From a virus: a DNA stretch of 64,000 nt. Below are positions 3,105-59,590 of the stretch, in pieces. Under the pieces are notes generated by a model. It was not told the origin of the DNA. It saw nothing but the letters and a program-made list of their open reading frames with translations, and made no database searches. Positions within the stretch are counted from its first letter, which is position 1. Each line of letters opens with the position of its first letter. The stretch lies in IMG/VR virus record IMGVR_UViG_3300024255_000002. The stretch is one strand, 5' to 3'. Both the position numbers and the translations under genes were made by a program.

Positions 3105-4810
3105 TACAATTTCAAAAGATAAGATGGAAAAACTTTCTATCAACAGGTAATAATTTTATTGAAGTAGATTTAGAGAAATCAAAATCAACTTTGATTATAG
3201 GTGCCAATGGTTCTGGTAAGTCAACTTTATTAGACGCCTTATGTTATGTTTTATTTAATAGACCATACAGAAATATTAAAAAAGAACAACTTGTTAATAG
3301 CATAAATGACAATGATTGTGAAATAGAAATTGAGTTTATTGTTAATAGAAAGCAATACAAAGTTGTTAGGGGTATTAAACCAAACAAGTTTGAGATTTAT
3401 TGCAATGGTGATTTAATAGACCAAGACGCTTCTGCTGTAGATTATCAAAAGTCTTTAGAAGAAAATATATTAAAATGTAACTATCGTGCTTTTTCTCAAA
3501 CAGTAATACTTGGCTCTTCTTCTTATGAACCATTTATGAAAATGAGAGCTCGATATAGACGAGAAGTTGTTGAAGAAATATTAGACATAAGAGTCTTTAG
3601 TCACATGGATCTTTTAATTAGACAAAAACAAACCGAACTAACAAAAGCTGTTGTTGATGTAAAACATAGATATGAATTGTTAGGTGAAAAATATGAATTA
3701 CAGAAAAAACATTTTGAGCAAATACAAAATAGAGATAATACAGATATAGAAGATAAAAAGAAACAGTTAAAAGAAAATGAAGTTAGTAACTATGAGTATA
3801 ACCAGAAATTACAGTTACTCAATGAAAAAATTATATCAACAAAATCTGAAATATGGGGTGGTGAGAAACATACTCAAAAATCAAATGAACTGGCAAAACT
3901 AGAAGCAAAGATTGAAACAAATTTATCAAATCACAAAAGAACTTTAGACTTTTTTCAAAACAATGATACATGCAACACATGTACACAACCAATAGATAAA
4001 AATTTTAAATTAAAAAAGATAAATGAAGAGGCACAGAAAATATCAGACTTAGAAACAGGCCTACAAGATTTAGAAAAAGAGATCAATAAAACAGATGAGA
4101 GAATAACTGAATACAAAGAAATAGAAAAAAGACTTAATAAGTTAAATCTATCTGTTGCTAAAATCAATACTTCTATTTCAGAAATCAATAGACACTCAAA
4201 TAGATTAGATATAGAGATTGCAAAACTAAATGGTGAAACAGATTCAACAAATAATGTTGCTGAACAAATAGAACAACTTAGAGTAGATTTAGAACAAGTA
4301 GGTGTTGAAAAGGATAAAATGATAGAGAAGAAGAAATACATTGATATTGCCAGAGAAATATTAAATGATACAGGAGTTAAGGCAAATATTATTAAAAAAT
4401 ATATACCTATAATGAATGGCCTTATTAATAAATTTTTAAGATCAATGGACTTCTTTGTGAATTTTCATTTAAACGAAGAATTTGAAGAAACAATCAAAAG
4501 TAGATTTAGAGATACCTTTGCATATAATAGTTTTAGTGAAGGTGAAAAACTAAGAATAGACTTGTCACTTTTATTTACTTGGCGTGAGATTGCCAAAATG
4601 AAAAACAGTACAAATACTAACCTATTAATATTAGATGAGATATTTGATTCTAGTTTAGATGGTCAAGGAACAGATGATTTTTTTAGAATATTAAAAAGTA
4701 TAACAGATCAAAATGCCTTTATTATATCGCATAAGGGGGATATACTATTTGATAAGTTTACAAATATAATGAAATTCGAAAAGGTGAACAATTTTTCAAC
4801 AATGAGTTAG
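3101..4810 (+). CDS. gp46: Recombination ATPase gp46 (Rad50/SbcC-like)
   Basis: Walker A GANGSGKS, coiled coil with CNTC zinc hook, FSEGEK signature, LILDEIFD Walker B. Confidence 0.96.
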   Translation: MIQFQKIRWKNFLSTGNNFIEVDLEKSKSTLIIGANGSGKSTLLDALCYVLFNRPYRNIKKEQLVNSINDNDCEIEIEFIVNRKQYKVVRGIKPNKFEIYCNGDLIDQDASAVDYQKSLEENILKCNYRAFSQTVILGSSSYEPFMKMRARYRREVVEEILDIRVFSHMDLLIRQKQTELTKAVVDVKHRYELLGEKYELQKKHFEQIQNRDNTDIEDKKKQLKENEVSNYEYNQKLQLLNEKIISTKSEIWGGEKHTQKSNELAKLEAKIETNLSNHKRTLDFFQNNDTCNTCTQPIDKNFKLKKINEEAQKISDLETGLQDLEKEINKTDERITEYKEIEKRLNKLNLSVAKINTSISEINRHSNRLDIEIAKLNGETDSTNNVAEQIEQLRVDLEQVGVEKDKMIEKKKYIDIAREILNDTGVKANIIKKYIPIMNGLINKFLRSMDFFVNFHLNEEFEETIKSRFRDTFAYNSFSEGEKLRIDLSLLFTWREIAKMKNSTNTNLLILDEIFDSSLDGQGTDDFFRILKSITDQNAFIISHKGDILFDKFTNIMKFEKVNNFSTMS

Positions 4811-7447: not shown

Positions 7448-7457
7448 AAAATCAAGT

Positions 7458-7472
7458 GTTCTTGTTTTGTTC
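7458..7472. promoter_or_regulatory. Alphaproteobacterial LexA (SOS) box-like site
   Basis: GTTC-ttgtttt-GTTC (N7), 36 bp upstream of a sigma70 -35; second copy at 58989. Confidence 0.6.
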
Positions 7473-7508
7473 TTATTAAAACCCAATAAAATCAACAAAA
7501 ATAAGTGC

Positions 7509-7537
7509 TTGACTTTTACATCAAAATACGGTAGCAT
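7509..7537 (+). promoter_or_regulatory. Early sigma70-type promoter
   Basis: TTGACT-N17-TAGCAT with an upstream A-rich element shared with the 59050 promoter. Confidence 0.7.
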
Positions 7538-7546
7538 ATACAGTAT

Positions 7547-9658
7547 ATGAAAACAAACACTATGAATATGAAAAACACTATGGAAAATAAAAGTACACTT
7601 GCTAAACTACTTGCTACTGAAAATATTGAAGTACAAGAAAATGCTACACAAACTGCTTCATTTGATGTTGTGAATAGAATATTAACTATCCCAATATTTA
7701 AAGAAGAACACAAATCAAAACATGTTTATGATATGTTGATCGGCCATGAGGTATCTCATGCTTTACATACACCATCTGAATCATGGAAATCTATGTCTGA
7801 TAGATCAAACGAATTTAGATCATTTGTTAATGTTATTGAAGATGCTAGAATTGATAAACTTATTCAAAGTAAATATCCAGGTTTAACTGTTGATTATATT
7901 GAAGGTTTTAAAAAGTTATATGCTGATAACTTCTTCGGTACTAAAGACAAAGATATTAACAAAGACTATACATTAATTGATAAAATCAATCTATGGTTTA
8001 AATCATCTAAAAAACTAGATGTTAAATTTTCATCTAAAGAAAACAAATTCGTTGAGGCAGTTGACAACTGTAAATCATTTGATGATGTTTTAAAACTTGC
8101 TGAAGAAATCTTAGGTCACTGTAAAGAAGAATTGAAAAAACAACCTGAACTGACTAAGTCATTTGAAATATCAAAAGAAAAATCTAAAGGTGATAAATCT
8201 GAAACCGAACAAGACTCTATGTCTGCTGATCAAAAATTAGATAAGTGGGTAGAAAAACAAGAGGGTGAAAGTGATGAAGAAGTTAAAAAAGAAAAAGATC
8301 AATCATTTTCAAATAATGCTGGTGGTGATTTTGAAATTAGATCATTGACTAATGAGGCATACGATAATGCTAGAAAGGATATGTCTGATGATGAACAAGA
8401 GGATAGAGTATATTCAACTCTTCCATCTGTTAATCTTAAAAATATTATCATTCCTTATTCTAAGTATATTAGAGATCATTACATACATGACTCTAAGTTA
8501 GATTCTTATGATAAGGCTTTATTGGCAGAGGCAAGAGAAGAAACTAAAAAATTTATGAAAGAATCTAGTTCGGCTGTAAATTATCTAGTTAAAGAATTTG
8601 AAATGAAAAAAAATGCTAAGTTATATGCTCGTGCTTCACAGGATAAAACAGGTATTATTGATCCTTTGAAATTACATACTTATAAATTTGCTGAAGATAT
8701 TTTCAAAAAAATTACTACTGTTCCTAATCAAAAAAATCATGGTATGATTTTATTACTTGATTGGTCTGGTTCTATGGCAAAAAACTTATTGCCAACTGTT
8801 GAACAGTTGTTAAACTTAGTTATGTTTTGTAAAAAGATTAACATACCTTTTTCAGTATATTCATTTATGAATCCTGATAAAACAGATGGTAGTAAACCTT
8901 TTAAAACTACGAAGAAAACTTTACAGGCAGATCAAACTACAAGATTAGTACAGTTATTCTCACATAAACAAAGTAAAACTGATTTTACTAGAGTATGTGA
9001 ATTGTTACACCGATCTGCTAAGTATTTTTCTGGATACAGATCATATAACAACCGTGATAGAGTACCATCTATTCCACATGAATATTACCTATCATCAACT
9101 CCTCTAAACGAGTCGTTAGTTGCTATGGATACAATCATTAAAAAGTTTAAGAATGATTATAAAGTAGAAAAACTTGCTCTTGTTACACTTACAGATGGTG
9201 CTTCTAATTCACTTAGAGGTAATGGTGATGGTATATATGGTAAAACTTATCTTAAATTGCATAACAAATATGTTCCTGTAACTGATTATAGTAGAGACAA
9301 AGAATGTATAACCAATGTTTTGATTAGTTACTTAAAGAAAAAATATGATTTACAAACTGTTGGTTTCTTTTTGGCAGATAAGTTTAGAGAGTTACAGTGG
9401 AACTTGCCATTAAATCTTAACTATAAACAAACTGAAACATTTAAAAAAATGTTTATTAAAGATAAATTTGTGCCAGACTATACAACTGCTTATGATGTTT
9501 ATTTTTATGTTAAGGCAGATACTAGAGTTGAAAATACCGATATGTCTGATGTTGAGACAACTAATAAGAGAACATTGAAAAAAATGTTTATGTCTGGTAT
9601 GAAAAAAAGATTGACGAGTCGAATCTTATTACAGAATTTTATAAAGAGAATCGCTTAA
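7547..9658 (+). CDS. CobT-like protein: N-terminal HExxH metallopeptidase-like domain plus C-terminal vWA domain
   Basis: GHEVSH...NVIEDARI; MIDAS DWSGSM, STPL, LTDG; paired with the following AAA ATPase. Confidence 0.88.
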   Translation: MKTNTMNMKNTMENKSTLAKLLATENIEVQENATQTASFDVVNRILTIPIFKEEHKSKHVYDMLIGHEVSHALHTPSESWKSMSDRSNEFRSFVNVIEDARIDKLIQSKYPGLTVDYIEGFKKLYADNFFGTKDKDINKDYTLIDKINLWFKSSKKLDVKFSSKENKFVEAVDNCKSFDDVLKLAEEILGHCKEELKKQPELTKSFEISKEKSKGDKSETEQDSMSADQKLDKWVEKQEGESDEEVKKEKDQSFSNNAGGDFEIRSLTNEAYDNARKDMSDDEQEDRVYSTLPSVNLKNIIIPYSKYIRDHYIHDSKLDSYDKALLAEAREETKKFMKESSSAVNYLVKEFEMKKNAKLYARASQDKTGIIDPLKLHTYKFAEDIFKKITTVPNQKNHGMILLLDWSGSMAKNLLPTVEQLLNLVMFCKKINIPFSVYSFMNPDKTDGSKPFKTTKKTLQADQTTRLVQLFSHKQSKTDFTRVCELLHRSAKYFSGYRSYNNRDRVPSIPHEYYLSSTPLNESLVAMDTIIKKFKNDYKVEKLALVTLTDGASNSLRGNGDGIYGKTYLKLHNKYVPVTDYSRDKECITNVLISYLKKKYDLQTVGFFLADKFRELQWNLPLNLNYKQTETFKKMFIKDKFVPDYTTAYDVYFYVKADTRVENTDMSDVETTNKRTLKKMFMSGMKKRLTSRILLQNFIKRIA

Positions 9659-9720
9659 AAAACATGAGTGTTGCAAATATGTCACACTATTTATTAAGTA
9701 TATCAATATAAAATAAGTGC

Positions 9721-9749
9721 TTGACTTTCATATGATTTTATGATAGGAT
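9721..9749 (+). promoter_or_regulatory. Early sigma70-type promoter
   Basis: TTGACT-N17-TAGGAT; imperfect palindrome TGTTGC-N6-GTCACA at 9669-9686 upstream. Confidence 0.7.
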
Positions 9750-9788
9750 AGCACTATAAACAAATAAAAAAAAATAGGAAAAAACACT

Positions 9789-11021
9789 ATGAAAAATGTT
9801 GAACTAAATGATAAACAAAAAACAGTAATTGACGTTTTATATAAAACATATAAATCTGATACTGTTACAAGGGCTCAAATTAATGACCTTGTAAAATCTA
9901 AAAAGATTTCAAATCCATCGTGGTTAAAATCTGATACTTACAAAGTTGGTAGAGGTGTCTATAAATTACCTTTATCTAATGACGGCAAAGAATTTGCTGA
10001 ACCAACATGTCAAGGTTCTATGGAACATCATGTAAAGAGTAAAAAGGTTGAATCTAAACCTGATACTAAGGCTGCTTACATTGTTAGCTCCCTAACAGAC
10101 AATGTAGTTCCTCAAAAAGATAATGACTTTGTTACCTTTGGTAACTTTGGTGATGTAAAAAACATTATCAAATCTAAAAAGTTTTATCCAGTATTCATTA
10201 CAGGATTATCTGGTAATGGTAAAACACTTGCTGTAACACAGGCATGTGCTGAGGCAAAACGTGAAATGATCAGAGTCAATATTACTATTGAAACTGATGA
10301 GGATGATTTACTTGGTGGATACAGACTAAGAGACGGTGCAACTGTTTGGCAAAATGGTCCTGTTATTGAGGCAATGGAAAGAGGTGCTGTTTTATTATTA
10401 GATGAAATCGACCTTGCTTCAAATAAGATTATGTGTTTACAACCAATCTTAGAAGGTTCTGGTGTCTATGTTAAAAAGATTAACAAGTTTGTTAAACCTA
10501 AACTTGGTTTCAATGTTCTTGCAACTGCTAACACTAAAGGTCAAGGTAGTGATGATGGTAAATTCATCGGTACTAATGTTCTTAACGAGGCATTCCTTGA
10601 GAGATTTCCAGTTACATTTGAACAACAATATCCTTCTGCTAAAATAGAAGAAAAAATTGTATCAAACAAACTAAAATCATTTGGTAAATCTGATGACAAG
10701 TTTGCTCATAACTTAGTTACTTGGGCAGATGTTATTAGAAAAACATATACCGATGGTGGTGTTGATGAAATTATATCAACTAGAAGACTAGTACATATTG
10801 CTGAGGCATATGGCATCTTTAGAAATAAGATGAAGGCTATTTCAGTATGTACAAATAGATTCAATGATGATACTAAAAAATCATTTGTTGATTTATATTC
10901 AAAAGTTGATAGTGGCGTTTCTGCTGAACAGATCATGGATGATCAAAAGAAGGCTGAAGACGCTGCTATATTACAAGATTCCAACGATAGTGAGGATGGC
11001 GAAGAGGACATAACTGTCTAA
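9789..11021 (+). CDS. cobS: CobS-like / MoxR-family AAA+ ATPase
   Basis: GLSGNGKT, LLLDEID, ATANTKGQG, NEAFLERF, ISTRRL. Confidence 0.9.
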   Translation: MKNVELNDKQKTVIDVLYKTYKSDTVTRAQINDLVKSKKISNPSWLKSDTYKVGRGVYKLPLSNDGKEFAEPTCQGSMEHHVKSKKVESKPDTKAAYIVSSLTDNVVPQKDNDFVTFGNFGDVKNIIKSKKFYPVFITGLSGNGKTLAVTQACAEAKREMIRVNITIETDEDDLLGGYRLRDGATVWQNGPVIEAMERGAVLLLDEIDLASNKIMCLQPILEGSGVYVKKINKFVKPKLGFNVLATANTKGQGSDDGKFIGTNVLNEAFLERFPVTFEQQYPSAKIEEKIVSNKLKSFGKSDDKFAHNLVTWADVIRKTYTDGGVDEIISTRRLVHIAEAYGIFRNKMKAISVCTNRFNDDTKKSFVDLYSKVDSGVSAEQIMDDQKKAEDAAILQDSNDSEDGEEDITV

Positions 11022-17546: not shown

Positions 17547-17575
17547 TTGACTTTTTCACATTTTTGTGTTATAAT
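17547..17575 (+). promoter_or_regulatory. sigma70 promoter for gp43 (leaderless)
   Basis: TTGACT-N17-TATAAT; ATG at 17581. Confidence 0.75.
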
Positions 17576-17580
17576 ATAGT

Positions 17581-20082
17581 ATGAATCTAGCGAGCCATTT
17601 CTATACAAGTGTTTTAGAGCATAAAGGTAAACTTCTTATAAGAGGTGTTGCCAACGGAGAGTCGTATCTAAGTAGGATCAATTATAGACCAACTTTGTTT
17701 ATGCCTAGTAAAACACAAACGGCATACAAGTCACTAGACAATATACAATTGGCACCTAAAAGATTTGATTCTATTTCAAAGGCAAAACATTTTTATGACG
17801 AGTATAAATCTATTCCAGAATATAAAATCTATGGAATGAATCGTTATCAATATCAATATATTGCTGACGAATATAAAGACGACATAAGATGGAACAAAGA
17901 TTATATTAAGATATTCACACTTGACATAGAAACCGAGTGTGAGAACGGCTTTCCCGATCCTGATACTGCAAAAGAAACTATTATTTGTATAACAGTTAAG
18001 AACCATAGTAACAAACAAATTCTTACATGGGGAACTGGTGACTTTATTGCTAAAAAAGCAAATGTAACTTATATCAAATGTCAAAATGAAAAACATCTTC
18101 TATTAGAGTTTCTAAAATTCTGGTGTAAAAATCATCCTGATATATTGACTGGTTGGAATGTTAGATTTTTTGACATGCCATATTTGATGAATAGAATGAG
18201 ATACCTTTTTGATAATGATACTATTAACAAAATGTCACCTTGGAATTATGTTAATGCTGATCGTGTTCAAATGGGTCAAAACAATAAACAGTATTGGAAT
18301 ATATTAGGTGTTTCTATATTAGATTACTTTGAACTGTATAGAAAATTTACCTATGTAAGGCAAGAGTCTTATAAACTAGATTACATTGGTAAAGTAGAAC
18401 TAGGCGAACAGAAATTAGAAAATCCTTACGATACATTTAAAGAGTTTTATACAAAAGATTATCAAAAGTTTGTAGAATATAATATCCAAGACGTTGAACT
18501 TGTTGATAAACTAGAAGATAAAATGCGTTTGATTGAGTTATGTTTAACTATGGCATACGATTACAAAGTAAACTATAACGATGTGTATTCGCAAGTAAGA
18601 TGTTGGGATACATTAATCTATAATCATCTAAGAAAAAAGAATATAGTAATACCACCAAGAGAAGACCATGAGAAGTCAACTCAATACGAAGGTGCGTATG
18701 TAAAAGACCCACAACCAGGATTGCATGAATGGATTTGTTCGTTTGATTTGAACTCACTATATCCACACTTGATTATGGAATATAATATAAGTCCTGAAAT
18801 GTTCGCTGGTGTAGAACCTAGATCAGTAGGTGTAGAAAACTTCTTAGCAGAAAAACTAAATCTTAATTTTGCAAAAGATAAGAATGTTACCATTGCACCA
18901 AACGGCGCCATGTTTAAAAAAGATAAACAAGGTTTCTTGCCTGAACTAATGGAAAAAATGTATACCGATCGTGTTGTTTATAAAAAGAAAATGATCGAAG
19001 CAAAAAAAGAATTTCAAAAGACAAAGGATCCTATCTATTCAAATGAGATTGCAAGATGTAATAATATTCAAATGGCAAAAAAGATTTCTCTAAACTCTGC
19101 TTATGGTGCCATTGGTAATCAATACTTTAGATACTTTGATGTTAAACAGGCAGAAGCAATCACACTTGGTGGTCAGTTGGCAATTCGTTGGGTAGAACGT
19201 GATGTAAATGCATTTATGAATAAGATATTACAAACAACCAATGTAAATTATGTTGTTGCGTCTGATACAGATTCTATCTACTTAAAACTAGATAAGTTAG
19301 TTGAAAAAGTTTGTAAAGATAAATCAATTGATCAAGTTGTAGATTTTATTAACAAGGCCGCTGAAGAAAAAATACAAAAAGTAATTGATAAGAGTTATGA
19401 AAAACTTGCCGAATATATTAATGCGTATGATCAAAAAATGATTATGAAACGAGAGGCAATTGCAAACAAAGGTATATGGGTTGCTAAAAAACGTTACATG
19501 ATGAACGTATTTGATGAAGAAGGTATTAGATTTGAATCACCTAAGTTAAAGATTATGGGTGTTGAGGCAGTTAAGTCATCAACTCCAGAGGTTTGCCGAG
19601 GTAAAATTAAAGACGCAATTAAAATTATTATGAACTCAACGCAAGATGATTTGATTAAGTTTGTTGCAGATTTCAAAAAAGATTTCTTTAAATTAAAACC
19701 TGAAGAAATTGCCTTTCCTAGATCGTGTAATAATATTGACAAGTATATAGATTCTTCAAATCTGTATATAAAAGGAACTCCAATACATGTAAAAGGTTCT
19801 TTAATATACAATCATTATCTAAGAACTCATAAATTAGAATCTAAATATCCATTAATTAAAGATGGTGAAAAAATAAAATTCTTAATGTTGAAGTTGCCTA
19901 ATCCTGTAAAAGATACTGTGATTGCATTTTCAACTAAAATACCAAAAGAGTTTAACCTACACAAGTATGTTGACTATGATGTTCAATTTGAAAAAACATT
20001 TTCTGATCCATTGAGGTTTATCTTAAATGCTATCAACTGGAAACTTGAAGAAGAAGCAACACTAGAGGCATTTTTCGAATGA
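17581..20082 (+). CDS. gp43: Family B DNA polymerase gp43
   Basis: Exo I DIET; pol motifs FDLNSLYP, KISLNSAYG, SDTDS; single chain with no intein apparent. Confidence 0.97.
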   Translation: MNLASHFYTSVLEHKGKLLIRGVANGESYLSRINYRPTLFMPSKTQTAYKSLDNIQLAPKRFDSISKAKHFYDEYKSIPEYKIYGMNRYQYQYIADEYKDDIRWNKDYIKIFTLDIETECENGFPDPDTAKETIICITVKNHSNKQILTWGTGDFIAKKANVTYIKCQNEKHLLLEFLKFWCKNHPDILTGWNVRFFDMPYLMNRMRYLFDNDTINKMSPWNYVNADRVQMGQNNKQYWNILGVSILDYFELYRKFTYVRQESYKLDYIGKVELGEQKLENPYDTFKEFYTKDYQKFVEYNIQDVELVDKLEDKMRLIELCLTMAYDYKVNYNDVYSQVRCWDTLIYNHLRKKNIVIPPREDHEKSTQYEGAYVKDPQPGLHEWICSFDLNSLYPHLIMEYNISPEMFAGVEPRSVGVENFLAEKLNLNFAKDKNVTIAPNGAMFKKDKQGFLPELMEKMYTDRVVYKKKMIEAKKEFQKTKDPIYSNEIARCNNIQMAKKISLNSAYGAIGNQYFRYFDVKQAEAITLGGQLAIRWVERDVNAFMNKILQTTNVNYVVASDTDSIYLKLDKLVEKVCKDKSIDQVVDFINKAAEEKIQKVIDKSYEKLAEYINAYDQKMIMKREAIANKGIWVAKKRYMMNVFDEEGIRFESPKLKIMGVEAVKSSTPEVCRGKIKDAIKIIMNSTQDDLIKFVADFKKDFFKLKPEEIAFPRSCNNIDKYIDSSNLYIKGTPIHVKGSLIYNHYLRTHKLESKYPLIKDGEKIKFLMLKLPNPVKDTVIAFSTKIPKEFNLHKYVDYDVQFEKTFSDPLRFILNAINWKLEEEATLEAFFE

Positions 20083-20231: not shown

Positions 20232-20746
20232 TATATGCCGACCCACCATGGTCGTTTAAAACTTATTCTGACAAGGGCAAAGATAGAAGTCCTGAAAATC
20301 ATTATAACGTTATGTCTTTACAGGACATAAAAGATTTGCCAGTAAATAAGATTGCAAATGATGATTCAGTTTTATTAATGTGGGTCATTGATCCTTTATT
20401 AGATAAAGCATTTGAAGTAATAAACGCATGGGGTTTTAAATATAAAACTGTTGCCTTTACATGGGCAAAGACAAATAAAACTAAACCAGGATTCTTTACA
20501 GGATTAGGATATTGGACTAGAGGTAATCCTGAAATGTGTTTACTTGCCACAAAAGGTAAACCTAAAAGACTAAGTAAGTCTGTGCCACAACTAGTTGTAG
20601 AACAACGGAGAGAACATAGCAGAAAACCAGATATAATGTACAACCATATAGAGAATTTACTAGAGGGACCTTATATTGAAATGTTTGCTAGAACACAAAA
20701 ACCTGGTTGGGATGCATGGGGTAATCAACTTGACAAATTTAAATAA
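20204..20746 (+). CDS. MT-A70 family N6-adenine methyltransferase
   Basis: YADPPW, LLMWV, FTWAK, HSRKP, IEMFAR, GWDAWGNQ. Confidence 0.92.
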   Translation: MDIDKKYNVIYADPPWSFKTYSDKGKDRSPENHYNVMSLQDIKDLPVNKIANDDSVLLMWVIDPLLDKAFEVINAWGFKYKTVAFTWAKTNKTKPGFFTGLGYWTRGNPEMCLLATKGKPKRLSKSVPQLVVEQRREHSRKPDIMYNHIENLLEGPYIEMFARTQKPGWDAWGNQLDKFK

Positions 20747-20762
20747 TGTGTTATAATATAGT

Positions 20763-22028
20763 ATGAATTATCTGAAAAAATATGCAAATGAAAACAAGTT
20801 GCCTATAATGGATCAACAGACATTTGAGTCCATTACAAACGAAATAGGCAAAGAAAAATTTAGAGAAGACCTAGCAGAATATATTTCTGTTGTTAGGCCT
20901 GTATATCCTTTAAAACAAATCTCATATGATATAATGAGACAATCATTTAAGAGTTTACAAAAACAAGATGTTTGGGAATATATTAAACCATTAGAACAAT
21001 TAGAAAAAAGTGTTAAAGAAAAATATGATGATTTAAAATATAACTTCAAAGACCATGGTCTAGGTGTTATAGACGCACCATCTATTTACAATGACGTTTC
21101 AAATCATTTTCACCAAGAGTTGAGATTAAATTGCTCAAGTTATAGTTTCAAAGGACCTTTAGATGTATGGTATAAAGGAACTGCAAAAGATATATGGCGA
21201 TGTTTAGGACCTATATGGCGTGGTATCAATAATATGAAACCTGCTATGATAGATGGCAAACAAGAACTAAGAGGTGGTAACTTATCAGAATCAAGTTACA
21301 TGAGTGCATTTAGATTAGGAACTTATATTGCAACACAATTTAAACCTAATGTTGCAAAAGCAATATATCAAATGACAGACGCAAAAAGAGTATTAGATAC
21401 TTCATGTGGTTGGGGTGATAGACTTGCTGGTTTCTTTACTAGTGACGCTGAAGAATATATCGGTTGCGATCCTAATCCTAACACTTACAAACTATACATG
21501 AAACAGATAGAAGTTTACAATAGTTTTTTACCAGAAGAAAAACAGAAAAAAGTTACTATCTATAATTGTGGTGCTGAAGATTTGCCATGGGATGAAATAA
21601 AAGATATTGATTGTGCCTTTACAAGTCCACCTTATTTCTCAACTGAAAGATATAATGAAGGTGGTGAAAAAGAAGAAAATCAATCATGGTTTAAATTTGA
21701 TGAATATGCTAAATGGCGTGATGACTTTTATTTACCAGTTGCACAAAAAAGTTTTGAGAGATCAAAACATATGTTTGTAAACATTATGGATCCAACAATT
21801 AAAGGTAAGAGATATTTTAGTTGTGATGAATTAGTTGATAGTTTAAAAGATAACTTTGTAGGACAAATCGGTATGAGAATAATGCAAAGACCTAAGTCAG
21901 ATAAACTATTTGAAAGTGAAGAAGCAAAAGCAGAATTTATGAATCGTATTTTTATTGAAAACGTTTGGTGTTTTTCAAAAGAAAAATTAGATTACTTTAG
22001 ACACAGTAGAAAAGCAACCTTGTTTTAA
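20763..22028 (+). CDS. Amino DNA methyltransferase (paralog of 6362..7447)
   Basis: TQFKP, LDTSCGWGDRL, FTSPPYF; own promoter TTGACA-N16-TATAAT (20730-20757). Confidence 0.85.
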   Translation: MNYLKKYANENKLPIMDQQTFESITNEIGKEKFREDLAEYISVVRPVYPLKQISYDIMRQSFKSLQKQDVWEYIKPLEQLEKSVKEKYDDLKYNFKDHGLGVIDAPSIYNDVSNHFHQELRLNCSSYSFKGPLDVWYKGTAKDIWRCLGPIWRGINNMKPAMIDGKQELRGGNLSESSYMSAFRLGTYIATQFKPNVAKAIYQMTDAKRVLDTSCGWGDRLAGFFTSDAEEYIGCDPNPNTYKLYMKQIEVYNSFLPEEKQKKVTIYNCGAEDLPWDEIKDIDCAFTSPPYFSTERYNEGGEKEENQSWFKFDEYAKWRDDFYLPVAQKSFERSKHMFVNIMDPTIKGKRYFSCDELVDSLKDNFVGQIGMRIMQRPKSDKLFESEEAKAEFMNRIFIENVWCFSKEKLDYFRHSRKATLF

Positions 22029-49186: not shown

Positions 49187-51516
49187 CACACAGAGAGGTA
49201 AAAATGGTCACAGTACAAGAGTCTATTAATGTTAAAAAAAGAAATGAAAGAGGACTAGAAAAATTAGATATTGATAAGATACACTCGATGGTAGAATATG
49301 CTGTAGAAGATATAACAGGTGTATCTGCTTCGCAAGTTGAAATGAATAGTGGATTACAATTCTTTGATGGTATATCAACGGATGAAATACAACAGATATT
49401 AGTTAAGTCTGCTTCAGATTTAATTTCTTTAGAAAATCCTAATTACACATATGTAGCAGCTAGATTGCTTTTATACGGAACAAGAAAACAAGTTTTTAGA
49501 AAGTTGTGGGATCACCCACACCTTTACGATCACACTAAAAAATTAGTTGGCATTGGATTATATGATGATGAAATACTAAAAAAATATGATCGTAAAGATT
49601 TTGATAGAATGGAAGGATGGATAAATCATGGCCGAGATTATGATTTTACCTATGCTGGATTAAGACAAGTTATAGACAAGTACTTAGTTCAGGATAGAAG
49701 TACAAATCAACTGTATGAAACACCACAGTTTATGTACATGTTAATTTCAGCAACATTATTTGCCAACTATCCGATAAACACGAGGATGAGTTATGTTAAA
49801 AAATATTATGAAGCAATATCCACTTTTAGAATCAATATACCGACGCCTGTTATGGCTGGTGTCAGGACTCCTTTACGTCAGTATGCTAGTTGTGTTTTGG
49901 TTGATACTGACGATACTCTTCCTAGTATCTTCAGCTCTGATATGGCTATTGGAAGATATGTCGCTCAAAGAGCGGGAATTGGAATCAACGCAGGACGCAT
50001 ACGTGGAATCAATTCAAGGATACGAGGTGGAGAGGTACAACATACTGGAGTTATACCGTTCCTTAAAAAGTTTGAGGCGACAGTTAAGTGTTGCACTCAA
50101 AATGGAGTAAGAGGAGGTTCTGCTACAGTTCACTTTCCAATATGGCACCAAGAAATAGAAGATATACTAGTTCTTAAAAACAATAAAGGTAGTGAAGATA
50201 ATAGAGTTAGAAAATTAGATTACTCAATACAATTATCAAAACTATTTTATGAAAGATTTATTGAAGACTCAGATATAACTTTATTTTCACCACATGAAGT
50301 ACCAGAGTTATATGAGGCATGGGGAACACCTGAATTTGATGATCTGTATTTAAAGGCAGAAAGAAAAACAAGTGTAACTAAAAAGAAAATAAATGCTCAA
50401 ACATTGTTTATGGACATGTTAAAAGAAAGAGCAGAAACAGGTCGTATCTATATTATGAATATTGATCACTGTAACACACACTCTAGTTTTAAAGATAGAG
50501 TTTACATGTCAAATCTATGCCAAGAGATTACGTTACCAACAACACCATTACAACACATAGACGGTGATGGTGAAATTGCATTGTGTATATTGTCAGCAGT
50601 TAATGTAGGTAAAATAAACAAAAGAGAAGAATTAGAAAATCTTTGTGACCTGGCAGTTAGATCATTAGATGAAATTATAGATCATCAACAGTATCCAATC
50701 AAGGCCGCAGAAATATCTACAAAGGCAAGAAGAAGTTTAGGTATTGGTTATATTGGTCTTGCACATTATCTTGCTAAAAAAGGTTACAAGTATGATCAGA
50801 AACTTGCATGGAAACAAGTTGATGAACTAACTGAGGCATTTCAGTATTATCTATTAAGTGCTTCAAATGAACTTGCAAAAGAAAAAGGTCAGTGTGATTA
50901 TTTTCATAGAACAAAATACAGTGATGGTATTTTACCTATTGATACATACAAAAAAGATGTTGATGAGGTAGTTCAAAGAGAATTGTCTTACGATTGGGAA
51001 CATTTAAGAAAAGAAATAAAAGAACATGGATTAAGAAATTCAACACTATCGGCACAAATGCCAAGTGAGTCTTCATCTGTTGTATCAAATGAAACAAATG
51101 GTATTGAACCACCAAGAGACTATCTAAGTGTTAAGAAGTCTAAGAAAGGTCCTTTAAAACAGATAGTACCAGAGTATAATAAATTAAAAAAATTTTATAC
51201 ACTACTTTGGGACATGAAAGGGAATGAAGGATATATAAATATCGTTGCAGTAATGCAAAAATATTTTGATCAGGCAATCAGTGGTAACTGGTCATACAAT
51301 CCTGAAAATTATGAAGATGGTCAAGTGCCTGTATCAGTAATGGCACAAGACTTATTACAAACTTATAAATTAGGTTGGAAAACTTCATACTATCAAAACA
51401 CATATGATAGTAAGAGAGAAGAAGAAGAACCAGCACATAACATTGGTTGGAAAGATGAACAACCAGAAACAAAAGAAGAGGACGATCCAGAAAACTGTGA
51501 TTCGTGTACAATTTAA
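49180..51516 (+). CDS. nrdA: Class Ia ribonucleotide reductase alpha subunit (likely start about 49204)
   Basis: ATP cone, PTPVMAG, SNLCQEI, MPSESSS, C-terminal CDSC. Confidence 0.97.
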   Translation: MLTHREVKMVTVQESINVKKRNERGLEKLDIDKIHSMVEYAVEDITGVSASQVEMNSGLQFFDGISTDEIQQILVKSASDLISLENPNYTYVAARLLLYGTRKQVFRKLWDHPHLYDHTKKLVGIGLYDDEILKKYDRKDFDRMEGWINHGRDYDFTYAGLRQVIDKYLVQDRSTNQLYETPQFMYMLISATLFANYPINTRMSYVKKYYEAISTFRINIPTPVMAGVRTPLRQYASCVLVDTDDTLPSIFSSDMAIGRYVAQRAGIGINAGRIRGINSRIRGGEVQHTGVIPFLKKFEATVKCCTQNGVRGGSATVHFPIWHQEIEDILVLKNNKGSEDNRVRKLDYSIQLSKLFYERFIEDSDITLFSPHEVPELYEAWGTPEFDDLYLKAERKTSVTKKKINAQTLFMDMLKERAETGRIYIMNIDHCNTHSSFKDRVYMSNLCQEITLPTTPLQHIDGDGEIALCILSAVNVGKINKREELENLCDLAVRSLDEIIDHQQYPIKAAEISTKARRSLGIGYIGLAHYLAKKGYKYDQKLAWKQVDELTEAFQYYLLSASNELAKEKGQCDYFHRTKYSDGILPIDTYKKDVDEVVQRELSYDWEHLRKEIKEHGLRNSTLSAQMPSESSSVVSNETNGIEPPRDYLSVKKSKKGPLKQIVPEYNKLKKFYTLLWDMKGNEGYINIVAVMQKYFDQAISGNWSYNPENYEDGQVPVSVMAQDLLQTYKLGWKTSYYQNTYDSKREEEEPAHNIGWKDEQPETKEEDDPENCDSCTI

Positions 51517-58983: not shown

Positions 58984-58988
58984 TAGAT

Positions 58989-59003
58989 GTTCACGTTTTG
59001 TTC
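58989..59003. promoter_or_regulatory. Alphaproteobacterial LexA (SOS) box-like site
   Basis: GTTC-acgtttt-GTTC (N7), with an extra GTTC at 58977-58980; 46 bp upstream of the -35. Confidence 0.6.
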
Positions 59004-59049
59004 TTCTTAAAAACCACAAAAACCCAGTAAAATCAACGTTTTTTAGTGC

Positions 59050-59078
59050 TTGACTTTTAAGCCTTTTTCATGTATAGT
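59050..59078 (+). promoter_or_regulatory. Early sigma70-type promoter
   Basis: TTGACT-N17-TATAGT; upstream block homologous to 7457-7518. Confidence 0.7.
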
Positions 59079-59080
59079 AT

Positions 59081-59590
59081 GTGTATATGACAAAAAAAAA
59101 CACTATGAAAAAACAAAAAGGTTTTAGTTTAGTTGAATTACTTGTAGTAGTCGCTATATTAGGAATATTATCATCTATTGGTATTGTATCTTATTCAAAA
59201 TTTACATACGGTGCCAAAATTACTGTAACACATAAGTTCCATGAACAAGTAAAAAAATATATTATTTCAGAAACAAATAAATGTGATGTAGGATTTGATA
59301 AGATTTTTGAGGCAGATAACGGAACTCATATCACTTGCAGTGAATTAAGTAGTAATTCAGGTTCTGCTTGGGATGGATTTGATATACAATTAATGAGAGT
59401 GTTCAAAGATACACCAAACGTTTGGGGCGCAGACCCTTTTAAAGAGGCATTAAATGTTGATTGGCACCCAAAGGCAGGTTATGTTAATGTTAGACACAGA
59501 GGTGGTGAAGTGCTAATGCAAACTTGTTTAGAAAAAACTTGTAAAGACAATTATAAAATTAGAGAAATGATACAAATTAATGGAATATAA
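59081..59590 (+). CDS. Type IV pilin-like protein (prepilin cleavage/methylation motif; likely start about 59105)
   Basis: KKQKG^FSLVELLVVVAILGILSSIG; C-terminal Cys pair. Confidence 0.88.
   Translation: MYMTKKNTMKKQKGFSLVELLVVVAILGILSSIGIVSYSKFTYGAKITVTHKFHEQVKKYIISETNKCDVGFDKIFEADNGTHITCSELSSNSGSAWDGFDIQLMRVFKDTPNVWGADPFKEALNVDWHPKAGYVNVRHRGGEVLMQTCLEKTCKDNYKIREMIQINGI

Follow-up and report, generated by a model that had tools for sequence, protein, structure and literature searches.

LexA-type boxes matching SAR11 SOS operators upstream of two early promoters in a T4-like pelagimyophage

Two early promoters of a T4-like SAR11 phage, one in front of a cobT-like gene and one in front of a type IV pilin-like gene, carry upstream a direct repeat of the form GTTC-N7-GTTC together with the flanking bases of the host SOS operators. 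We interpret the two boxes as genuine copies of the SAR11 LexA operator within an early-promoter control module, where predicted docking of LexA would modulate the promoters; judged from the sequences, we hold this interpretation with moderate confidence. Part of the viral programme would then probably be tied to the damage state of the host.

The DNA analyzed, referred to here as the window, is a stretch of 64,000 nt from IMG/VR virus record IMGVR_UViG_3300024255_000002. Its GC content is 31% and nearly all genes are on the plus strand. Pelagibacter phage Mosig was the sole GenBank phage match to the window, which therefore belongs to a T4-like SAR11 phage, i.e., a pelagimyophage with Mosig and HTVC008M as relatives (Kyanoviridae type); the first-pass annotation had also called it T4-like. 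The closest record was IMG/VR contig G001. The relatives in culture (Mosig and HTVC008M) were isolated as lytic phages according to their records. The first-pass annotation had seen no repressor in the window, and tblastn searches, including host LexA and UmuD (S24 fold) as queries, agree with it, as no LexA-, UmuD-, HU- or CI-like S24 protein was found encoded within the 64 kb. SAR11 is the most abundant bacterium in the ocean. The SAR11 genomes used here were reached via a 16S probe scan; five were searched, and four were used for counting the extended motif described below. The features of the window that are discussed are as follows:

7457-7473, plus strand: LexA-type box 1, TGTTCTTGTTTTGTTCT (core GTTCTTGTTTTGTTC at 7458-7472)
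7478-7496, plus strand: second upstream motif, copy 1, AAAACCCAATAAAATCAAC, 12 nt before the -35
7509-7537, plus strand: sigma70-type early promoter 1 (TTGACT, 17 nt, weak -10 TAGCAT)
7547-9658, plus strand: cobT-like gene, 703 aa, first gene after promoter 1 (phrog_459, E 3.8e-177)
9721, plus strand: TTGACT of the cobS-like gene's own promoter (-10 TAGGAT), without a LexA-type box
9789-11021, plus strand: cobS-like AAA ATPase gene (Pfam AAA_5 and CbbQ_C; phrog_249)
50117-50131, plus strand: third exact GTTC-N7-GTTC match, intragenic, without the host flanks
58988-59004, plus strand: LexA-type box 2, TGTTCACGTTTTGTTCT (core GTTCACGTTTTGTTC at 58989-59003)
59019-59037, plus strand: second upstream motif, copy 2, AAAACCCAGTAAAATCAAC, 12 nt before the -35
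59050-59078, plus strand: sigma70-type early promoter 2 (TTGACT, 17 nt, TATAGT)
59105-59590, plus strand: type IV pilin-like gene, first gene after promoter 2 (Pfam N_methyl, E 5.7e-10; phrog_3433 pilin)

GTTC-N7-GTTC is exact in both box cores, and both boxes were found on the plus strand exactly where the first-pass annotation had placed them. Box 1 begins 10 nt past the stop codon of an upstream methyltransferase-like gene, and box 2 begins 5 nt past that of an upstream glycosyltransferase-like gene. The distance from the end of the box to TTGACT was 36 nt at site 1 (TTGACT at 7509) and 46 nt at site 2 (TTGACT at 59050), the same values that had been claimed. The accompanying description of the boxes as one helical turn apart holds for these two sites but not across the relatives, where the spacing is merely loosely periodic. 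The boxes are centered near -79 and -89. Neither one overlaps the promoter core (-35, -10, and start site), unlike the host operators, which overlap the -10 or the start site. Inspection by eye and a consensus scan found no convincing promoter overlapping the boxes on either strand.

Sites 1 and 2 are paralogous over ∼130 nt with 78-83% identity in a repeat search (repeat families D8 and D11), which confirms the homologous upstream block that had been proposed for the two promoters. The order within the shared block is the box, AAAACCCA(A/G)TAAAATCAAC, gtgcTTGACTttta, the weak -10, and a shared start region. The start region of both cassettes reads ATGAMAAA...AACACTATGAA with an in-frame upstream ATG (7547-7582 and 59088-59110; start motif AAACACTATG). 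The two copies differ by 10 nt in length, apparently as a result of a tandem duplication (aaaaaccaca / aaaaccca) in the longer copy at site 2.

At least 12 early-type promoters are present in the window, and two of them have the LexA-type box. The -10 elements of box-bearing promoters are non-consensus (TAGCAT, TAGGAT, TATACT, TAGATT, TACATT, and TATAGT), and most box-free promoters of the window have TATAAT. All cobT orthologues examined have this -35 and spacer length, likewise with a weak -10. The Mosig orthologue of the cobT-like gene is annotated as a "putative peptidase", and an N-terminal methylation motif is present in the pilin-like gene. In the region of the cobS promoter (9640-9760) the gtgcTTGACTtt core is common with the cobT promoter, and GTGTTGCAAATATGTCACAC replaces the LexA-type box. 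At several early promoters (17547-17585, 20730-20768, 7532-7549, and 59073-59090) an ATG follows the -10 by just 5-9 nt (e.g., TATAATatagtATGAAT), which suggests that the early mRNAs are leaderless or near-leaderless. The start codon of host umuD likewise abuts its operator.

GTTC-N7-GTTC is the published LexA motif of Alphaproteobacteria (PMC8565304), in agreement with the identification offered in the first-pass annotation. LexA (TIGR00498, above cut-off) is encoded in all five SAR11 genomes, and a second, UmuD-like match was found in four of them. A GAAC-N7-GAAC box precedes the start of every SAR11 lexA by 25-40 nt, and in every umuD a box directly adjoins the start codon. The recA gene has a conserved GAAC-N7-GTAC, with one mismatch, in 4/4 genomes. 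A flanking T on both sides is common to all SAR11 operators found. The proposed host thus has lexA and uses the same box at lexA and umuDC, with the one-mismatch form at recA.

When these flanks are included (TGTTC-N7-GTTCT), each of the four host genomes (1.2-1.4 Mb) has exactly three copies of the motif. Three of these genomes have the same set, made up of the operators of lexA and umuD and a TGTTCTATAAATGTTCT box that is conserved among them; in the remaining genome the third match is a different sequence (note that umuD of genome G005 has a one-base spacer variant). The conserved TGTTCTATAAATGTTCT box was located in one genome, that of SAR11 HIMB4 (L253:980-994), in the intergenic region from which nrdA and a phosphoglucomutase-family gene diverge. 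Since a LexA-type box adjoins nrdA, ribonucleotide reductase may be part of the SAR11 SOS regulon; the nrdA context comes from one genome because the third box was located there only. SAR11 has a working SOS set, consisting of recA, lexA, and umuDC. It was reported previously that these genes are co-induced in late iron stress (PMC2864753) and that SAR11 SOS genes and nrdAB rise together during pelagiphage infection; an SOS box beside nrdA fits the latter co-induction (PMC12753301).

Box 1 is identical to the SAR11 umuD operator at 17/17 positions, and the core of box 2 is identical to the SAR11 recA box GTACACATTTTGTTC at 13/15 positions. The phage and host boxes consist of the same direct repeat with the same flanking T...T. 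They differ in placement: the SAR11 SOS operators overlap the -10 or start, whereas the phage copies, in a lytic genome and in either orientation, precede the -35 by 36-46 bp (by 10-89 bp in relatives). The phage boxes therefore appear SOS-like in sequence but not in geometry.

The bare pattern is not enriched. Three GTTC-N7-GTTC matches were found in the window vs. 1.35 expected, and the one-mismatch pattern was found 39 times vs. 39.3 expected. As 14 of 100 shuffled sequences reached three bare matches and the one-mismatch count was close to expectation, the bare count by itself has no significance; likewise in HTVC008M the bare pattern was found eight times vs. eight in the control. Only the host-informed motif is informative. 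TGTTC-N7-GTTCT, with the flanks common to all host operators, was found twice in the window vs. 0.15 expected, and 0/100 shuffles reached two. A weight matrix was built from the host operators only, and ∼128,000 positions of the window were scored with it. The two box sites ranked first and second at 21.4 and 19.6 bits; in 30 shuffles no first-ranked score exceeded 18.9 and no second-ranked score exceeded 16.5. The density of the extended motif in the window (two in 64 kb) is ∼13 times that of the host genomes. The exact match at 50117 was judged to be due to chance, because it is intragenic and is absent from both the extended-pattern matches and the top 15 matrix scores.

When the block was compared with GenBank phages by BLAST, just a 36-nt piece in Mosig was matched, so pattern searches were needed to see the conservation. 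Both boxes are kept in G001. The same 15-nt core as in box 1 was found in Mosig and HTVC008M, in intergenic DNA upstream of promoters. In Mosig the box lies between the MazG gene and the cobT orthologue, and again at a second promoter; in HTVC008M it is present at two promoters, and at one of these the distance to the -35 is only 10 nt. All four boxes have the opposite orientation to those of the window. We also assembled 39 loci anchored on the CobT protein, with no DNA motif used in the selection, and searched up to 260 nt upstream of cobT. An exact extended box in either orientation was found upstream of cobT in 24 of the 39 loci (note that the loci are not phylogenetically independent). 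These 24 include every locus with a GC content of 30-33%, a CobT identity of 37-94%, and enough upstream DNA. The remaining 133 kb of the CobT-anchored loci contained only two exact extended boxes. The loci without a box are the distant ones (28-34% CobT identity, most with 35-40% GC), which plausibly infect other hosts. Within the cobT loci, the GTTC tetramers and their flanks are invariant while the spacer, orientation, and distance to the promoter vary, which is the pattern expected of a protein-binding site under selection. Two findings had been named beforehand as counting against LexA boxes at phage promoters, namely a lack of enrichment upstream of promoters in relatives and a host without LexA or with another box. 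Neither was encountered: the boxes are conserved upstream of promoters in the cobT loci, Mosig, and HTVC008M, and the SAR11 genomes have both lexA and the box.

Direct-orientation boxes end 36, 37, 45, 46, or 77 nt from the -35, roughly at whole helical turns, despite insertions of 9-41 nt. The distances of inverted boxes are scattered (10, 30, 41-44, 52, 62, 81, and 89 nt). Strict helical phasing was rejected because of this scatter and because many instances share descent; we regard phasing of any kind as suggestive only. Site 2 is less conserved than site 1, and its box is kept in the closest relative (G001) only. This comparison was anchored on the upstream glycosyltransferase gene and includes few close relatives. 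In site-2 relatives whose upstream gene is ∼60% identical, a palindrome-like GTGCG...GCAC element fills the slot of the box. The 16-mer of the LexA-type box was also found in GC-rich viral contigs (58-73% GC). Since an AT-rich 16-mer is improbable by chance at such GC content, these matches hint at a class-wide LexA motif, if the hosts of those contigs are other Alphaproteobacteria.

At both sites a second motif of 19 nt, AAAACCYARTAAAATCAAC, stands between the box and the promoter, and it also precedes promoters in many IMG/VR contigs. When IMG/VR was scanned for this motif, 100 distinct contexts were obtained. A box immediately precedes the motif in 30 of them (in direct orientation in 17 and inverted in 13), and all 30 boxes have a T-rich spacer of the umuD/recA type. 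A variant of the second motif is inverted in two cobT orthologues (L280 and L310), as would be expected if it were bound as a discrete site. In three SAR11 genomes (L396-L398), one of the three HU/IHF-family genes has a related and conserved motif ∼115 nt before it. We take this as a lead rather than a finding: the second motif may be bound by an architectural protein of HU/IHF type, which would then control its own gene. With respect to the IHF consensus (WATCAANNNNTTR; WATCAA, 4 nt, TTR, and an upstream A-tract), both window copies have AATCAA and the A-tract, with TTR out of register; TTR is in register in many unrelated contigs carrying the second motif.

In many relatives a GTGCG-N5-8-(C)GCAC element is present between the LexA-type box and the second motif, or in place of the box. 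Examples are at L274:1912-1928 in HTVC008M, at ∼4453-4468 on the minus strand of L263 in Mosig, at ∼62-77 of L001, and past the glycosyltransferase gene in L445 and L446. It is absent from both copies in the window. Because its spacer length varies, the element may form a small hairpin instead of serving as a binding site of fixed geometry. We also considered a structured RNA or terminator as an explanation of the upstream block and rejected it: an Rfam search of the blocks gave nothing credible (a single match to a miRNA family, E 0.58), and the predicted folds of the blocks were no more stable than those of shuffled sequences (z -0.9 and +0.7). The promoter/stem-loop cassettes of T4-type phages (PeSL) have a stable stem-loop, whereas the window copies have none by these z values.

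The main rival to a regulatory role is that the boxes serve as a LexA decoy or sponge, the replicating phage copies titrating a small LexA pool and thereby de-repressing recA, umuDC, and probably nrdAB for replication and dNTP supply. We consider this unlikely. The box sequences are optimal host operators located outside the promoter core with free orientation, a conserved host box lies between nrdA and its divergent neighbor, and SOS genes and nrdAB are induced together in infection as cited above, all of which would suit a sponge. A genome with just two to four good boxes suits it less, and a sponge has no need for the same slot to be kept across 37-94% CobT identity, beside the second motif and at roughly turn-wise spacing. 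A sponge thus accounts less well for the conserved slot than for the free orientation, although the slot position is weak evidence against it because intergenic space is scarce. Another protein that reads repeats with an 11-bp period, either a host response regulator of OmpR/CtrA type or a phage early protein, could also be what the box binds. Direct repeats of this period are typical of winged-helix response regulators, and in some viral contigs the 11-mer is repeated in longer, iteron-like tandem arrays. Use of host PhoB by marine T4-like phages is reported in the cyanophage literature. However, the host has the extended motif at hardly any place other than lexA, umuDC, and one conserved intergenic box, and recA has a close variant of it; this is the signature of LexA and not of another regulon. 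The occurrence of the same 16-mer in GC-rich viral contigs also points to a class-wide LexA motif if their hosts are other Alphaproteobacteria, and no LexA-, UmuD- or HU-like protein was found encoded in the window. We therefore rate binding by another protein as quite improbable.

The first-pass annotation had suggested a delay or pseudolysogeny switch. In that case LexA would restrain the early programme as long as the host is undamaged, or do the opposite. Host-type boxes at early promoters would agree with such a switch, and virulent phages that defer lysis via host regulators are known (phi29/Spo0A and CtrA phages; PMC9437464). The window gave this suggestion no direct support: the boxes are off the promoter core and miss the -35, the -10, and the start, no S24 repressor-like protein was found in the 64 kb, and the cultured relatives were isolated as lytic phages. 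Because only two of at least 12 early-type promoters carry boxes, and these drive accessory genes (cobT/cobS and the pilin-like gene) and not replication genes or master regulators, we regard a switch as very unlikely. The least probable reading, to which we give hardly any weight, is that the GTTC repeat is a functionless passenger in a duplicated, mobile promoter cassette similar to the T4-type promoter/stem-loop. Paralogy of the window copies over ∼130 nt, which extends into the start-codon region, and the presence of similar modules before different genes in different contigs are what a mobile cassette would leave behind. A passenger would not be expected to stay intact while its surroundings diverge, invert, or gain insertions of 9-41 nt, nor to equal the host operators down to the flanks, and neither window copy has the stem-loop of such cassettes in the folding and Rfam tests above.

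The preferred reading, a LexA operator copy with a regulatory role at the adjacent promoter, is favored by the kept slot beside the second motif, by the poor -10 elements, and by the near whole-turn spacing of direct boxes, which counts as weak support. Simple occlusion is unlikely because the boxes lie upstream of the promoter core. The proposed module would consist of the stop codon of the preceding gene, the LexA-type box, the second motif, the TTGACT -35, and a weak -10, in this order, and would belong to a subset of pelagimyophage early promoters. LexA is known to act positively in other bacteria, including an alphaproteobacterium, and for this reason we propose that intact host LexA docks ∼80-90 bp upstream of the transcription start and modulates the adjacent promoter with its weak -10 without blocking it, e.g., by contacting RNA polymerase or the protein bound at the second motif. 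The sequences show directly that the boxes have the identity to host operators given above, that host genomes have few copies of the motif, and that relatives conserve it deeply; from there we infer that LexA binds and that it affects transcription in one direction or the other. The output of cobT/cobS and of the pilin-like operon would depend on whether LexA is intact, and it would change, by activation or dampening, when LexA is cleaved as a result of prior DNA damage or of SOS triggered by the infection.

Several points weigh against LexA docking as the explanation. The classical geometry of repression is missing, and a LexA site so far upstream may leave transcription unaffected. The spacing is not strictly periodic, many of the instances are related by descent, and site 2 is less conserved. 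The 11-bp-period direct repeat is also readable by another protein. A more specific and tentative version of the preferred reading is that intact LexA, together with the second host-type site (possibly HU/IHF-like), acts as a positive or timing factor, in which case LexA cleavage would be an internal clock or a sensor of host quality. The phage in this version would be strictly lytic and would lack the MotA/AsiA middle-mode machinery of T4, and the upstream slot would be a modular hub that takes the LexA box, the GTGCG...GCAC element, or both. Published attempts to find the middle and late promoters of pelagimyophages failed (PMC7029224).

LexA is known to gate temperate phages and mobile elements, e.g., GIL01 gp7/LexA, CTXphi, coliphage 186 Tum, and SPC32H (Fornelos et al., 2016, as cited in PMC9437464). 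In these systems the phage bears host LexA sites that link the damage signal to phage promoters, and the window resembles them in this respect. Their sites overlap antirepressor or lytic promoters and gate the lysogeny-lysis decision, whereas the window is T4-like, has no repressor found in its 64 kb, and bears the sites upstream of accessory promoters. The non-temperate phi29/Spo0A system and the CtrA phages of Alphaproteobacteria (PMC9437464) likewise read a host global regulator at promoter sites, but with another regulator and another signal; here the sites predict LexA and DNA damage or infection-induced SOS. Neither the known co-option of LexA nor the known sensing of host regulators covers a lytic T4-like phage with upstream LexA sites. 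LexA as a positive or dual regulator has been described for recA of Rhodobacter sphaeroides (Tapias et al., 2002; PMC101838), for hox of Synechocystis, and in M. tuberculosis (PMC3381160). LexA bound upstream of a promoter can thus raise transcription, and the R. sphaeroides LexA reads the same GTTC-N7-GTTC. Those cases concern host genes with experimental support, whereas at the phage promoters described here any effect could be of either sign.

In the literature searched we encountered no report of LexA boxes in pelagiphages or pelagimyophages. If the interpretation is correct, it would provide the first concrete regulatory link from SAR11 physiology (UV or oxidative damage, iron stress, and infection-induced SOS) to the way in which a lytic marine phage runs its programme, and LexA co-option would include virulent T4-like phages in addition to temperate elements. 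Few biological entities of the sea are as abundant as SAR11 and its phages. The idea is directly testable, as the cultured pairs HTCC1062/HTVC008M and HTCC1062/Mosig carry the same boxes.

Boxes in other arrangements were also observed among the IMG/VR contigs. In low-GC marine phage contigs (L336, L363, L380, L390, and L326) the same box lies within the spacer of TTGACT-N18-TCTAAT. These promoters have the classical repression geometry and could be LexA-repressed in another pelagiphage group. Tandem arrays of the 11-mer GTTCTCGTTTT, with at least three GTTC units in phase, are present in L293, L312, L387, and L395, and could be either multi-site LexA arrays or iterons.
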